A DNA stretch of 64,000 bases from Polyangiaceae bacterium (lineage in GTDB: Bacteria; Myxococcota_A; Polyangia; Polyangiales; Polyangiaceae): positions 596,319-660,318 of the forward strand of contig CBDCTZ010000011.1 in the NCBI GenBank assembly GCA_965222375.1, read 5' to 3'. Numbering within the stretch: the stretch's first letter is position 1; each line of letters opens with the position of its first letter. The position numbers and the translations under genes are program-made. Under the pieces are notes generated by a model. The model was not told where the DNA came from. It did not search any database and was given only the letters and a program-made list of their open reading frames with translations. This document shows, piece after piece, positions 18,483 to 23,763 of the stretch.

Positions 18483-18551
18483 GTCGCTCCCCTGCGGGGC
18501 AGTGCGGGAGTCGCGCCCCTGGTTGACGCAGGGAAGCGACCCCCAACAAAC
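18483..18551 (+). repeat. Dispersed hairpin repeat, copy 1 (most complete stem)
   Basis: GTCGCTCCCCTGCG/CGCAGGGAAGCGAC outer stem; GGGC-loop(GGGAGTCG)-GCCC inner stem; tail GCGACCCCCAAC. Confidence 0.7.
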
Positions 18552-18605
18552 CGGCTCCACCAGGCGACTGCTCTCAGCTCGATCGCGGCGCTACTCGCCC
18601 CCCTG

Positions 18606-19739
18606 TTACTTCCGGCGACGCCGAGCGCGCTTCTTGGATGCGGCTCGACCAGCTCCAAGCTCGCAGACGCGTTTCGCGTGGGCGGGCTCGCCTGTGTCCG
18701 GATCGAAGTTCACCCGGGCGTGTTTCCCTCGGGATTTGATTGCGGCTCGATCGTACGCTTTTGCCGCTTCCTCTTCGACGTCGAAGCTCCCAAGGTGCAC
18801 TCTGCGATTGTCGATACTGATCGCAGCAGTCCAGCTGTCTCCTGAGGGACGCATGAATACGCCGCGATACTGGCTCGACATGGTGGTCTTCGTTTCGCAT
18901 AGAGCTTCAGACTGAAGGGTTGTCGCGTCTGCCGGCTTCAGCTTTCCTTTCCTGTACTCGAAGTTCAGTTCGGCATCTTTGCCAAAGTAGAAGTAGGCTG
19001 CGCGATCGTGGGCGCGCGCTGCGGCCTCCTCGGTTTTCCAAGAGCCCAACCACACGAGCTCTCCTGGAAGCTGCACGAACGCGTTCCAGGGCCGCGAGCC
19101 TCCACCGGTCAGCAGCTTCCGGCGCCTGCCCTTACTCTTGCTCTCGTGCCGAGCCCCCTTGCGGCTCCCGTGCCGGTTGCACCACGAAACCCCGGCATAG
19201 TCGCTGGTCCTGTGGCGGATCCTGAATTGTTTGCGAGCCAGGCGCTGCAGTTCGTCAGCAGACGCGGGTCCGAGTTTCGTGCTCATGCGGGGGAAGTTGA
19301 GCTCGATGGGCAGGCGCAGGTGCAGAGCGCCACGGTCCCGCGCGATTGCTGCATCTCGCCCGCTTTCCCAGCGTCCCAAGAAGACGTTGCTCCCGTCGAG
19401 GTTGACGAATGCCGCGAAGCGATTGGTCCGTGGCTCGTACAGAACGCCCGCCCAACGCATGCCCATCTCGCTCAAGCGGCGGCGGCGGGCTTGCCGCGCC
19501 TCGCGAGTCGACACCCCACACCGTGCTTTGCCCAACAACTCCTCGCCTGTTTCTGGGTCGAAGTTCAAGCGCGCAGCGCGGCCCTGGGTTTGAAGCGTGC
19601 GTCGGTCGTATTCGCGAGCGGCTTCTTTCTCGCTTTCAAACGGCCCGAAGTTCTGCCGTGTGCCATCGATCGAGATGCGACACCACCAGCTAGTTCCGGT
19701 GGAGCTGACACCTCGGTACTTGCTTCGACGTCTTGCCAA
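18606..19739 (-). CDS. Tandem AP2-domain DNA-binding protein (4 AP2 repeats)
   Basis: Four units of (S)xY/WxGV...W/F.A...LGxF/W...EAA.A.D.A......LNF; highly basic termini; no HNH seen. Confidence 0.88.
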
Positions 19740-19754
19740 TTCTCTGCGCGCCCT

Positions 19755-21139: not shown

Positions 21140-21350
21140 GGCAGATGGAACCTGTTGCCGTAGCCTAGCCGGCGTGCGCGGCACTCTCTACTGCAAGGGC
21201 ACGTGGCAGATACGACCGGCGCCGCTGCCGAAGGTGGGCGCTTCGTAGGCGCCAATTCCCGAGGCGCGCGCCCAGTGGCTCCGTTGTCCGAAGATCGGCA
21301 AAGTTCCGCGGCCCGTTGCACCCCATCGCCCCCCGCGCGAAGCTCCGCCC

Positions 21351-23597
21351 GTGGCACCGCGACGCAAGAGTACGCCGCACCGCTCCTGGACCCTCGCTGA
21401 CCTGCGCAAAGCGGCCCAGGCGCATAAGGGCCGCTGCCTGAGCCGAGCATACGCGGGCCTAAACGAAGCCCACAAGTGGCGCTGCGCTAAGGGCCACGTG
21501 TTCGAGATGCGCGCCATCGCCGTCGTGAAGAGGAATGCCTGGTGTCAGACTTGCTCCGGGCGTCGTCCCCACAGCATCGAATCGATGCAAGCTCTAGCCA
21601 AGCAGCACGGTGGCAAGTGCCTCTCGAAGCGATACGAAAACGTCGACAAGAAACTGCGCTGGAAGTGCGCCGAGGGACATGTCTGGGCATCCATTCCGTA
21701 TCTGGTGCTCGGCGGCGCCTGGTGTCCGGCGTGCCGTTCTGGGCGGCTGCCCCCGGTGCAGATGCTGACGCAGATGCGAAAGACCGCGCGACAGCGCGGG
21801 GGAAAGTGTCTCGCGGATGAATACGTTCGCGCCAAGCATCCCTACGAGTGGCAATGCAAGCACGGCCACCGTTGGACGCGCGACTGGGATGGGATCCAAA
21901 GCGGCGCCTGGTGCCCCAAGTGTCGGGGCCGCTTGCCGCCGAAGGAAGCGCTCGCGCAACTGCAAGCCATTGCCAAGCGACGTGGCGGCGTCTGTCTCTC
22001 CAAGCGCTATGTCGGCGCCACCACCAACATGCAATGGCGCTGCGCCGAGGGCCATCGTTGGCGCACGGCAGCATCCAACATCCGCTCCGGGCATTGGTGC
22101 CACAAGTGTGCGGGCAACACGCCAGTCACGCTCCGCGAGGCTCGGCAGCTCGCTCGCAGTCGCGGCGGCAAGTGTCTCGCCAAGAAGATCGTCAGCAGCA
22201 CCAAGCCCATACGCTGGCAGTGTGAGCATGGCCATACCTGGAGCGCGCCCACATCGCGACTGAAGTCGGGCAGCTGGTGCCCAAAGTGCGCCAAGGCACC
22301 ACGCTACTCCCTGGAGGACATGCAGGCCCTCGCTGAAAAGCGGGGTGGCCAGTGCGTGTCTCGCCGCTTTCGATCGGTGAATCACCACCTCACCTGGCGC
22401 TGCGGCGAGGGACACGAATGGCGCGCAACGGGGTCACAGCTGCTCGGCTCCGGCACCTGGTGCCCGGTGTGCTGGGGCCGCCAATTGGGAACCATCCAGC
22501 AAATGCGCAAGCTCGCCAAAGCACGCCGCGGCAAGTGCCTTTCCACCCAATACACCAACAGCACCACGAAGCTCCGTTGGCGCTGCGCCGACGGGCACGA
22601 ATTTCTCAAGGAGCCAGTCAGTGTCAATCGCGGAGCCTGGTGTCCGTACTGTCGCAGGCGCGGTGCGAAGGGGATCGGGGCATTCATTCTCGCGGAGCAC
22701 AAGCGCCTCGCGAAGCAACGCGGCGGCGAATGTCTCTCGGACGCCTATCACCTCGCGTCCAAGCCACTGCGCTTTCGCTGCCAACAAGGCCACGAGTTTT
22801 CGGCACCATCCGCCACGGTGATGATGGGCGCCTGGTGCCCGGAGTGCGCCCACACCCGCAAGCCCAAGCTCGCCGAGATCCAAGCAATGGCGAAGCAGCG
22901 CGGCGGCAAGTGCGAGTCAAAGCGCTACGTCAACAGCCTGGAGCGCTTGCGCTTTGTTTGCGAGTACGGACATCGCTGGGAAACTCGCCCCTCGAACATC
23001 CGCCGTGGACACTGGTGCCCCAAGTGCGCCCGCAGCAAGCGACGCGGTAGAGCCGAGCCGCTCTCCATCGAGGACATGCAACTCAAGGCCGAAGAGCGTG
23101 GTGGCGTTTGCTTGTCGAAGGAATACGACTCCCAGCGTGACTACCTCGAGTGGCGCTGCGGTATCGGCCACGAATGGGAAGCACAGGCCGGAAGCGTCTA
23201 CGCGGGCAGCTGGTGCCCCCATTGCTCCGGACGCCAACCGCTCACCCTCGAAGCCATGCAGCGCTCCGCCCAATCCCGCGGCGGACGCTGCGTGTCCAAA
23301 GCCTACCGCGGCGTGCGCACCAAGCTCACCTGGGAATGCGCATCCGGCCACCGCTGGCGCGCAACCCCGCAGGCTCATCGCTCCGGCAGCTGGTGTCCAC
23401 GCTGCCTCGAGACTCCACCCGACGTGGGTATTGCTCGAGTGTGCGCGCTTGCACGACGCCACGGCGGCCTCTGCCTCTCGCCCAACCACCCCTACGCGAC
23501 CAAACCCTTGCGCTGGAAGTGCGCACGTGGCCATGTTTGGCGTGCGTTGGAATCAACGGTGCAAGTTGGCAAATGGTGCCCGCGGTGTCTGGATTGA
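21351..23597 (+). CDS. Poly-zinc-ribbon protein, 12 tandem ~61-aa C-H-C-C repeats
   Basis: 12 repeats of (R/H)GGxCLS..Y.....L.W.C..GH.(W/F).........G.WCP.C; no catalytic domain after the last repeat. Confidence 0.9.
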   Translation: MAPRRKSTPHRSWTLADLRKAAQAHKGRCLSRAYAGLNEAHKWRCAKGHVFEMRAIAVVKRNAWCQTCSGRRPHSIESMQALAKQHGGKCLSKRYENVDKKLRWKCAEGHVWASIPYLVLGGAWCPACRSGRLPPVQMLTQMRKTARQRGGKCLADEYVRAKHPYEWQCKHGHRWTRDWDGIQSGAWCPKCRGRLPPKEALAQLQAIAKRRGGVCLSKRYVGATTNMQWRCAEGHRWRTAASNIRSGHWCHKCAGNTPVTLREARQLARSRGGKCLAKKIVSSTKPIRWQCEHGHTWSAPTSRLKSGSWCPKCAKAPRYSLEDMQALAEKRGGQCVSRRFRSVNHHLTWRCGEGHEWRATGSQLLGSGTWCPVCWGRQLGTIQQMRKLAKARRGKCLSTQYTNSTTKLRWRCADGHEFLKEPVSVNRGAWCPYCRRRGAKGIGAFILAEHKRLAKQRGGECLSDAYHLASKPLRFRCQQGHEFSAPSATVMMGAWCPECAHTRKPKLAEIQAMAKQRGGKCESKRYVNSLERLRFVCEYGHRWETRPSNIRRGHWCPKCARSKRRGRAEPLSIEDMQLKAEERGGVCLSKEYDSQRDYLEWRCGIGHEWEAQAGSVYAGSWCPHCSGRQPLTLEAMQRSAQSRGGRCVSKAYRGVRTKLTWECASGHRWRATPQAHRSGSWCPRCLETPPDVGIARVCALARRHGGLCLSPNHPYATKPLRWKCARGHVWRALESTVQVGKWCPRCLD

Positions 23598-23700
23598 GGG
23601 CGTGCGGGACCTTGATGGGTGGCGCCTGGGGCGCCATCACGATGTGAATCGTGCTAGTTCGACGATTGATTGCGGGTTGCAAGGAATAGGTTGCCGGGCT

Positions 23701-23763
23701 TCGCTGGGCCTAGGTCGAGAGTAGCGGCCTAGTGACGCGCAGTGCTGCGACCCCCAACCCAAC
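23701..23763 (+). repeat. Dispersed hairpin repeat, copy 2
   Basis: TCGCTGGGCC-TAGGTCGAGAGTAGC-GGCCTAGTGA 10-bp stem; 16 nt after GGCC comes TGCGACCCCCAACCCAAC. Confidence 0.8.

Follow-up and report, generated by a model that had tools for sequence, protein, structure and literature searches.

Long nuclease-free arrays of AP2 and CapR/DUF4379-type zinc modules, putative DNA binders, beside a Tc-toxin-like cluster in a Polyangiaceae genome

DNA-binding modules of homing endonucleases are known to have been domesticated twice, as the AP2 factors of plants and apicomplexans and as CapR of a phage satellite. Here we describe a stretch of 64,000 nucleotides (nt) from a Polyangiaceae bacterium (hereafter the window: contig C11, 596319-660318, of genome G000, which comprises 10.56 Mb in 16 contigs at ~64% G+C) in which three adjacent genes, here called A, B and Z, encode long tandem arrays of both module types. 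According to the parts of the cited sources available to us, tandem CapR/DUF723/DUF4379 zinc fingers form the modular DNA-binding region of T5orf172 homing endonucleases, and the authors set them in parallel with AP2 (PMC10448857); the same fingers serve the EDxHD/Vsr endonucleases of phage group II introns as their DNA-binding part (PMC12350094); and in marseilleviruses four DUF4379 units are joined to a restriction-endonuclease domain (PMC5513546). CapR itself, from the PLE satellites of Vibrio cholerae, is described there as a repressor that binds DNA and is related to a domain found in homing endonucleases (Netter et al., 2021; PMC8096241).

The three genes are arranged in the window as follows:
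18606-19739, minus strand: gene A, 377 amino acids (aa), four tandem AP2 units and no other domain
19755-21101, minus strand: gene B, 448 aa, five tandem AP2 units, on the same strand as A and 15 nt upstream of it
21102-21350: divergent intergenic region between B and Z, 249 bp
21351-23597, plus strand: gene Z, 748 aa, twelve ~61-aa CapR/DUF4379-type zinc modules

All three frames were picked exactly by a codon-usage gene caller trained on this genome (crude calls; 8116 genes, 87% of the genome covered). The repeat units account for the full length of each protein (12 x ~61 aa cover the 748 aa of Z), and scans of Pfam, NCBIfam and PADLOC found no enzyme family in any of them. Thus the three reading frames, the 249-bp divergent gap, the module counts of 4 + 5 + 12 and the lack of an enzyme domain, all reported in an earlier note on this DNA, were borne out. 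We hold with moderate confidence that A, B and Z are domesticated proteins without a nuclease that would bind specific DNA sequences and act as regulators beside the adjoining Tc-toxin-like cluster; DNA binding is what their homology predicts, and the regulatory role and its targets are suggested by their position.

Pfam AP2 (PF00847), a ~60-aa unit of the form YRG ... W.A ... LG.F ... EEAA.AYD ... LNF, recognises one unit of A (E 4e-13, 49.8 bits versus a cut-off of 33.3), scores B as a whole at 23.3 bits, under the same cut-off, and detects 3 of the 9 isolated units, cut by eye, at E<=0.01. All nine units align as one ~84-column repeat ([YF]xGV ... W.A ... LG.W ... E..AA.A.DR ... LNFP), with a linker, 'kLgPAs..EL', after each repeat. 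When each unit was compared with a profile of the other eight, it scored 32-66 bits, the best of 200 shuffles reaching 4.6-11.8, and when the nine-unit profile was searched against PDB, all five matches were AP2/ERF chains (E 3e-23 to 2e-9), among them WRI1 (3e-23), ERF1, ERF096 and TEM1. A alone aligns with the double AP2 of WRI1 (PDB 7wq5) across two consecutive units and their linker at E 2e-16. Because of these leave-one-out scores, PDB profile matches and the WRI1 alignment, the count of 4 + 5 is right, and by the same comparisons all nine AP2-like units are real and belong to the predicted AP2/ERF DNA-binding domain family (PF00847). At E<=1e-30, A has 161 database relatives, and at E<=1e-10 it has 1985; in some of them 12-14 stretches match, and one named protein among the top matches, a multi-AP2 protein (P0163), is from a green alga.

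Z consists of 12 units of ~61 aa, each with a helix ending in 'RGGxCLS', followed by 'LxWxCxxGHxW' and then 'GxWCPxC'. The C..GH...WC..C motif is present in 12/12 units, in which A16, G21, C23, C39, G42, H43, W58, C59 and C62 are invariant, so that the candidate metal ligands C23, C39, H43, C59 and C62 (C/C/H/C/C) are kept throughout. Pfam assigns Z to DUF4379 (PF14311, 'probable treble clef zinc finger') at 112.4 bits versus a cut-off of 24.5, and by this score Z is a member of the DUF4379/treble-clef zinc module family, with putative metal ligands. A confident AlphaFold2 model of units 4-5 (predicted local distance difference test score, pLDDT, 84.3) has a helix, a beta-hairpin and a short helix per unit. 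No solved structure of the zinc module was found by phmmer against PDB (0 matches at E<=1) or by Foldseek against PDB (0 at E<=1e-3), and a wide VIA-align search gave a best Z-score of 5.0, inside noise; a missing structural match is not in itself a new fold. The fold search for Z returned 182 matches among predicted viral structures at E<=1e-3, whose names are treble-clef or zinc-ribbon protein, HNH, homing, Vsr or restriction endonuclease, and T5orf172 DNA-binding domain protein.

Database relatives of Z number at least 1357 at E<=1e-3 in the 411-1309-aa band, and include proteins from Bacillus thuringiensis, Priestia, Paenibacillus, Lysinibacillus, Gammaproteobacteria, Bacteroidota and archaeal metagenome-assembled genomes. 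Related long arrays pass the cut-off of the Pfam CapR model (PF21817), at 77-139 bits. None of the accessions that we take to be those of HNH, GIY-YIG, T5orf172 or Vsr occurs in the Pfam column of 120 listed Z relatives; one of the 120, P0085, carries PF10881, presumably a restriction-endonuclease-like DUF. Seven long-array relatives that were rescanned had just DUF4379/CapR together with weak BRCT, Jiv90 or zinc-ribbon matches, and one of them also a methyltransferase. By these annotations, nuclease-free long DUF4379/CapR arrays are a large uncharacterised family.

The same modules occur in homing endonucleases, from which the three proteins differ in what they lack. A and B carry no HNH or other nuclease domain and so are not HNH-AP2 homing endonucleases, and Z, which has no catalytic domain, is not one of the T5orf172, GIY-YIG or Vsr type. 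In PHROGs, A, B and Z match families labelled 'HNH endonuclease', in internal segments of the profiles only: A and B match just positions ~212-277 of 383 in phrog_99, its AP2-like part, and the matches of Z cover positions 86-308 of phrog_559 (607 positions) and 261-430 of phrog_681 (576 positions). A tblastn search of Z against 50,697 phage records gave matches of 170-310 aa (~3-5 modules) in 249 records, and the genes matched are annotated as HNH endonuclease, GIY-YIG nuclease or endonuclease. In viral contigs, the AP2 matches were of 1-2 units only (5 loci), and a single-protein query found no relative of Z. These phage and PHROGs matches, the viral fold matches and the available parts of two papers (PMC10448857, PMC12350094) agree with the earlier note that such modules usually accompany nucleases. 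Since the modules are elsewhere the DNA-binding parts of HNH, GIY-YIG and Vsr homing endonucleases, the role of DNA readers or regulators that the same note had suggested would be the natural reading of A, B and Z, which appear to be nuclease-free versions of homing-endonuclease DNA-binding arrays.

HNH-AP2 and T5orf172/GIY-YIG/Vsr homing endonucleases have the same tandem modules as A, B and Z, 1-5 per protein in the source texts available, with modular shuffling and recombination between repeats (PMC10448857, PMC12350094, PMC5513546). Unlike them, A, B and Z have no nuclease domain, form arrays two to four times longer and are encoded outside phage or intron contexts. CapR, the source of Pfam PF21817, is like Z nuclease-free and, as far as the accessible account goes, likewise derived from a T5orf172-type homing-endonuclease zinc module. 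CapR is a sequence-specific transcriptional repressor encoded by a phage satellite and aimed at a phage promoter, whereas Z is a chromosomal gene adjoining a toxin-like cluster, with DNA binding predicted from homology; Z also fits DUF4379 better than it fits the CapR model. Plant and algal AP2/ERF factors, especially those of the double-AP2 type such as WRI1, the best solved relative of A, are nuclease-free DNA-binding transcription factors; here, by comparison, the host is bacterial, there are 4-8 units per protein rather than 1-2, and activation or other accessory domains are absent from proteins of the A/B type. The architecture of Z is shared by uncharacterised 'zinc-ribbon domain-containing proteins' of Bacillus, Priestia, Paenibacillus, Ralstonia, Burkholderia and others, which are tandem DUF4379/CapR arrays of 650-1100 aa without a nuclease; their identity to Z is only 30-40% and their genomic settings differ. 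Our literature searches found no protein of this long-array type with a tested function and no paper that deals with bacterial multi-AP2 arrays or long DUF4379 arrays lacking a nuclease, with most subscription journals outside the search. Thus, the many uncharacterised members of both families and the principle of nuclease-free, endonuclease-derived DNA binders were already known; what is unusual here is how far the units have been multiplied (to 12, and to 4-8) and that the two module types stand side by side.

The genome carries paralogues of these genes on contigs C9, C13 and C14, and for four paralogue pairs we estimated the ratio of nonsynonymous to synonymous substitution rates (dN/dS) by the Nei-Gojobori method:
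Z, C11 versus C14: dN/dS 0.13, dS 0.29
B, C11 versus C9: dN/dS 0.26, dS 0.29
B, C11 versus C13: dN/dS 0.24, dS 1.31
A, C11 versus C9: dN/dS 0.24, dS 0.59

A, B and Z are thus under purifying selection. That they might be decaying remnants, the dead DNA-binding halves of former homing endonucleases with no present function, is very improbable. Such an origin would suit two module families that both come from homing endonucleases, loci that recombine and one truncated copy of Z; the dN/dS values of 0.13-0.26, frames free of stops and frameshifts and zinc ligands intact in 12/12 units argue against decay, and the full-length conservation of Z in two congeners (64-66% identity) and the more than 1300 long-array relatives in databases also speak against it.

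The mechanism that we consider most likely would start from three intact genes of two independent families (AP2, 4 + 5 units; CapR/DUF4379, 12 units), whose modules would derive from phage or giant-virus homing endonucleases, with the nuclease lost or never present, and would then have been multiplied into long arrays. Each module would contact a few base pairs, the array would read a long or composite double-stranded DNA site and leave it uncut, and the proteins would serve as transcriptional regulators, most simply as repressors in the manner of CapR. The likely targets would be the divergent B/Z promoter region and the adjacent Tc-toxin-like/FGE cluster, which is made up of the following genes:
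window start (running off it) to 7485, minus strand: SpvB/TcdB_midN/FG-GAP protein
7445-9229, minus strand: 594-aa protein
9154-16023, minus strand: 2289-aa protein
15893-17062, minus strand: FGE-sulfatase-like lipoprotein
16953-18053, minus strand: FGE-sulfatase-like lipoprotein

The 594-aa and 2289-aa proteins have no Pfam family. A position directly upstream of a toxin operon had been proposed for the three array genes; the adjacency is true, and beyond a gap of 552 bp the two FGE-sulfatase-like genes come first. These two adjacent lipoprotein genes share a 173-nt stretch that is 86% identical (16623-16795 versus 17758-17930) and sits in Gly/Ala-rich linkers, the two proteins being 46% identical overall.

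Three paralogous Tc-toxin-like clusters are present in the genome (window 1-18053, minus strand; C9:4016-21941; C14:1323988-1339659), which has five TcdB_midN genes in all. The SpvB/TcdB_midN proteins of the three clusters are 74-84% identical, while their middle giant proteins (2289, 2406 and 1603 aa) match at 28-31% in short local alignments; the 2289- and 2406-aa ones were scanned and have no Pfam family. The C9 locus comprises a TcB-like gene (84% identical to that of the window), the 2406-aa gene, an FGE-like gene, an eight-unit AP2 gene and a five-unit AP2 gene (91% identical to B), after which only the first unit of Z remains, followed by a 551-aa tyrosine-integrase gene (both within C9:26875-28906); an integrase-bearing insertion or rearrangement probably truncated this copy of Z. 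On C14, where AP2 genes are absent, a TcB-like gene (76%) is accompanied by genes for proteins of 562 and 1603 aa, an FGE-like gene and the gene of an OmpR-type response regulator; Z is complete there (92.5%) and divergent. The C13 locus has a five-unit AP2 gene (61% identical to B) and a one-unit fragment, and neither a zinc array nor an adjoining Tc-like cluster. Altogether there are 28 AP2 units in the genome, spread over six reading frames that include the single-unit fragment, and array length has changed between A, with four units, and its C9 paralogue, with eight.

The positions of these genes in related loci point to local control. Z is found at 64-66% identity over its full length in two congeners, G005 and G002. 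The G005 locus, a cluster orthologous to these, has a TcB-like gene (56-59% identical), 549-aa, 1547-aa and FGE-like genes, a response regulator and a divergent Z, and the G002 locus has two successive FGE-like genes and then a divergent Z. The slot between the FGE gene and divergent Z is thus occupied by an OmpR-type response regulator in C14 and G005, by AP2 genes in C11 and C9, and is empty in G002, while Z is the constant divergent partner across the C11, C14, G005 and G002 loci. With the AP2 operon in the slot of an OmpR-type regulator and Z as the unvarying divergent partner, these genes would most simply serve in local transcriptional control of the Tc-like/FGE cluster.

Several observations weigh against regulation of this cluster by A, B and Z. 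Between 18000 and 24000 of the window we found no sigma-70 consensus match, operator-like repeat or binding site. In the genus (six genomes), only 4/14 TcdB_midN genes have Z within 20 kb, all of one clade, and the G002 copies of Z are not near TcdB_midN genes. The parallel with CapR is also imperfect: Z reaches 17.2 bits and its C14 paralogue 22.0 bits against a cut-off of 24.2 for the CapR homology domain, and CapR has far fewer modules, which leaves the need for 12 unexplained. Finally, the RHS, recombinase/ParB, Tn3/integrase and Abi settings of related arrays, described below, fit a conflict or mobile-element role as well as they fit local regulation.

Relatives were sought in 60 other genomes, including five congeners (61 with this genome). 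The B query at E<=1e-10 hit 3/60 (G014, G033, G042) and 0/5 congeners, the Z query hit 3/60 (G002, G005, G017), and none of the 60 has both AP2 and zinc arrays. No AP2 unit was found in the locus DNA examined around Z in G005 and G002, and synteny of the right flank (a 320-aa protein and a kinase) with G002 was not found. Among 300 further sampled genomes of the phylum, with 18 candidates scored per genome, the AP2-unit profile matched 3 genomes; the zinc-unit profile matched 15 of the 300, two of which (G071, G082) have seven-unit arrays. A scan of a genome collection for AP2 arrays with one peptide pattern, which is not a census, gave 3 loci, and no zinc unit was present in the 5-21 kb of DNA examined for five other AP2 loci, three of which are arrays and two single units. 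The sole positive sign of AP2-zinc linkage outside this genome is P0142, a metagenomic protein cluster of three members, 1 of 41 B homologues, in which four DUF4379 units are fused to four AP2 units. G002 has two more Z-type genes on its contig C14 (L035, L036), each followed by a near-identical 216/282-aa protein with C-terminal CxxCxGxG motifs; one of these Z genes is in two pieces, overlapping frames with six units each.

Beyond the arrays, the window encodes on the minus strand a 568-aa Ser/Thr protein kinase (24789-26495) with strong matches to PADLOC PD-T4-6 kinase models (E 2e-65), which are probably generic kinase-domain similarity. Further along, also on the minus strand (27246-29809), a 371-aa HD + AAA_33 kinase, a 263-aa RNA ligase and a 218-aa S-adenosylmethionine (SAM) methyltransferase are encoded by adjacent genes, a trio that resembles an RNA-repair (Pnkp/Hen1-like) cassette; the methyltransferase is also a weak PADLOC 'mad2' match.

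The array genes lie between two copies of a dispersed repeat of ~60 nt, with the consensus GGCCCnnGTCGAGAGTAG[TC]GGCCCA-N~12-CAGGGAtGCGACCCC(A)AACCAAAC and a weak predicted common hairpin (7 pairs, -6.7 kcal/mol for the consensus). A strict pattern occurs 30 times in the genome (reversed control, 0), and an nhmmer profile at E<=0.01 finds 270 copies (141 plus, 129 minus), one per 39 kb, of which five are in the window:
18509-18552, plus strand: copy 1, degenerate and partial though alignable with the other copies (nhmmer E 0.0034, model positions 18-61; placed from 18483 in the earlier note), with a core that reads GGGAGTCG where the family has GAGAGTAG
23704-23765, plus strand: copy 2, good (nhmmer E 3.9e-12, fits the strict pattern), 107 nt past the Z stop
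32429-32487, minus strand: further copy (nhmmer)
48284-48343, plus strand: further copy (nhmmer and strict pattern)
62420-62480, plus strand: further copy (nhmmer and strict pattern)

By the crude gene calls, 241/270 copies are intergenic, and convergent intergenic regions are enriched in them (81/241 versus a background of 765/3972, 19%). Because orientation is not tied to the downstream gene (94 of the 241 intergenic copies on the same strand, 147 on the opposite one) and because of the enrichment in convergent regions, a promoter or 5' leader function was rejected, as was a known RNA or tRNA remnant (0 Rfam matches at gathering thresholds and 0 ARAGORN genes in the window). The repeat is species-specific, the 61 genomes having 30 strict copies here, 1 in one congener and 0 in the other 59. 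Neighbouring pairs within 6 kb number 44 genome-wide, 14 of them direct, and enclose ordinary genes; bracketing of A, B and Z is therefore expected by chance. Close pairs are mostly outward-facing (-,+), with 5/7 within 300 nt and 21/44 within 6 kb versus 9 (+,-), and recall REPIN-like doublets (e.g., C14:808647-808787 and C16:3262864-3263042). A full-length IS200-type Y1 transposase gene (146 aa, C13:543629-544069; Y1_Tnp E 4e-42) scores 155 bits with the IS200 model and 43.9 with the RAYT model, below the cut-off of 80, and has a clear repeat copy on one side and a diverged inverted copy, recognised by eye, on the other (C13:542925-544275); its product may be the enzyme that mobilises the 270-copy family.

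Judged by its features, the repeat is a REP-like dispersed element. It is like the REP elements of RAYT/IS200-type Y1 systems in its ~60-nt length, intergenic bias, hundreds of copies and species-specificity, in a GTAG-containing core that adjoins a GC-rich self-complementary stretch, and in the excess of outward-facing pairs and the Y1 gene between inverted copies; it differs from REP/RAYT in that the transposase is IS200-type by score, the hairpin is weak and one of the two copies beside the transposase gene was identified only by eye. A copy stands just past the stop of each full-length Z paralogue, at 7 nt in C14 (1343391-1343450, minus strand) and at 107 nt in the window; the two are in opposite orientation with unrelated flanks, ~6% of intergenic regions hold a copy, and the coincidence is unexplained.

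The model of the earlier note, in which 18483-23763 is a discrete mobile or excisable cassette between direct copies of a hairpin repeat, is largely refuted, and we give it next to no weight. A copy in the same orientation does stand on each side, on the plus strand; copy 1 is degenerate, the hairpin weak and the family dispersed, as the ~270 copies and the pairs around ordinary genes make plain. DNA similarity between the window and C9 runs, with gaps, from 17740 to 21529 and passes through copy 1, whose counterpart C9 has at the homologous position, and similarity to C14 begins at 21306, 45 nt ahead of the start of Z, and ends precisely at its stop (23597), so that none of the ends of the duplicated or converted segments (17740, 21306, 21529, 23597) falls at a repeat copy. 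Within the C9 similarity, 20240-21530 is a tract of recent gene conversion or recombination (97-100% sliding identity) whose ~1.25 kb take in the 5' half of B and the whole B/Z gap and reach ~180 nt into Z, the rest of B being 55-90% identical. The ~99% identity of the B/Z intergenic region to its C9 copy belongs to this tract, and we rejected it as a sign of regulatory constraint because the tract includes coding sequence. The repeat downstream of the C14 copy of Z and the P0142 fusion might seem to favour a unit of this kind; that repeat, however, has the opposite orientation and unrelated flanks, AP2 and zinc genes are apart in C13, C14 and all 60 relatives (the earlier note had named unlinked genes in relatives as a finding that would count against it), and the congeners G002 and G005 have the orthologous Z locus with neither AP2 genes nor the repeat. 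Pfam found no transposase or recombinase within the block. A search for empty sites in reads yielded only short metagenome contigs of one study that contain the stretch and no credible deletion allele; the sole long joint, 16665 to 24888, was discarded because its 21-letter side is in low-complexity sequence. By its boundaries and relatives, then, the A/B/Z block is not a mobile cassette of the composite-transposon or miniature inverted-repeat transposable element (MITE)-flanked kind, and where a REP-like repeat is abundant, copies on either side of a block should not be taken for the ends of a cassette.

The settings of related arrays bear on two other explanations that compete seriously with local regulation. 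A role in conflict, in which the arrays mask sites of homing endonucleases or DNase toxins, sense foreign DNA or silence invading elements, is possible but unlikely. In nine plasmid or chromid loci, chosen by rank and genus and without a measured background rate, 3/9 Z-type arrays come directly after an RHS-repeat toxin and a small gene: these are shorter arrays on a plasmid of Pseudomonas frederiksbergensis (L052), a replicon of Burkholderia cenocepacia (L053), where the RHS locus is PAAR-RHS-AHH with an AHH nuclease tip, and a megaplasmid of Ralstonia solanacearum (L056), and the position is one usually held by immunity or orphan cassettes. One more, in B. contaminans, is near type VI secretion system (T6SS) and polymorphic-toxin genes, and another lies 2 kb from a Cry8-family gene on a B. 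thuringiensis plasmid. AP2 arrays in two other Myxococcota genomes adjoin AbiEi/AbiEii, PIN and DNA methylase genes, a Bacillus mycoides array is placed between integrase and SIR2/large-ATPase genes, and CapR, in the available part of its description, acts in phage-satellite conflict (PMC8096241). Against this stand the lack of any PADLOC-DB 2.0 (2023 library) defence-family match for A, B and Z at E<=1e-3, the non-random choice of the nine loci, the absence of a conserved partner effector next to the arrays, and a geometry here (divergent, 12-18 kb from the TcB-like gene) unlike the arrangement downstream of toxin and immunity genes in Proteobacteria. That Z-type arrays instead serve mobile elements as accessory DNA binders, in partition, recombination directionality or as immunity repressors, with the present copies left over or captured, seems improbable to us. 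The seven-unit arrays of G071 and G082 do follow a large serine recombinase and one or two ParB/RepB-like genes, with phage portal and Mu-F genes nearby in G082; arrays adjoin Tn3 or integrase genes in Ralstonia, Cupriavidus pMOL28 and Bacillus mycoides, and one in Acinetobacter lies among insertion sequence (IS) elements. The tyrosine-integrase gene adjoins the C9 remnant of Z, of which about one unit is left, and the piece of DNA with Z that was copied between C11 and C14 is the size of the gene. Yet no recombinase, ParB or phage gene adjoins Z in the window, C14, contig C2 of G002 or G005, and Z is full-length and under purifying selection at a chromosomal locus common to two species. The shared theme of all these settings is variable, conflict-related or mobile DNA, with no single conserved partner.

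A more far-reaching idea, which we regard as a long shot, is that the arrays are bacterial counterparts of polydactyl zinc-finger or TALE-like long-site readers, with a fast-changing number and order of units that tracks changing targets, such as the organism's own, recently expanded REP-like repeats or invading elements. Fast change is suggested by the four units of A versus the eight of its C9 paralogue and by the near-identical C11-C9 conversion tract. Target tracking would be consistent with the repeat copy just downstream of both full-length Z genes and with the fact that only this one of the 61 genomes combines repeat expansion, multi-AP2 arrays and a zinc array.

Returning to the reading of A, B and Z as domesticated DNA binders, here a single bacterium carries the two kinds of module, neither joined to a nuclease, in arrays of 4-12 units that are under purifying selection. 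The recurring neighbourhoods of such arrays (Tc/RHS-type toxins, integrative elements and Abi or toxin-antitoxin genes) suggest where their targets should be sought. If the arrays do read DNA module by module, they would offer a natural, compact and programmable DNA-recognition scaffold, and would also represent an unstudied class of bacterial regulators or conflict factors.

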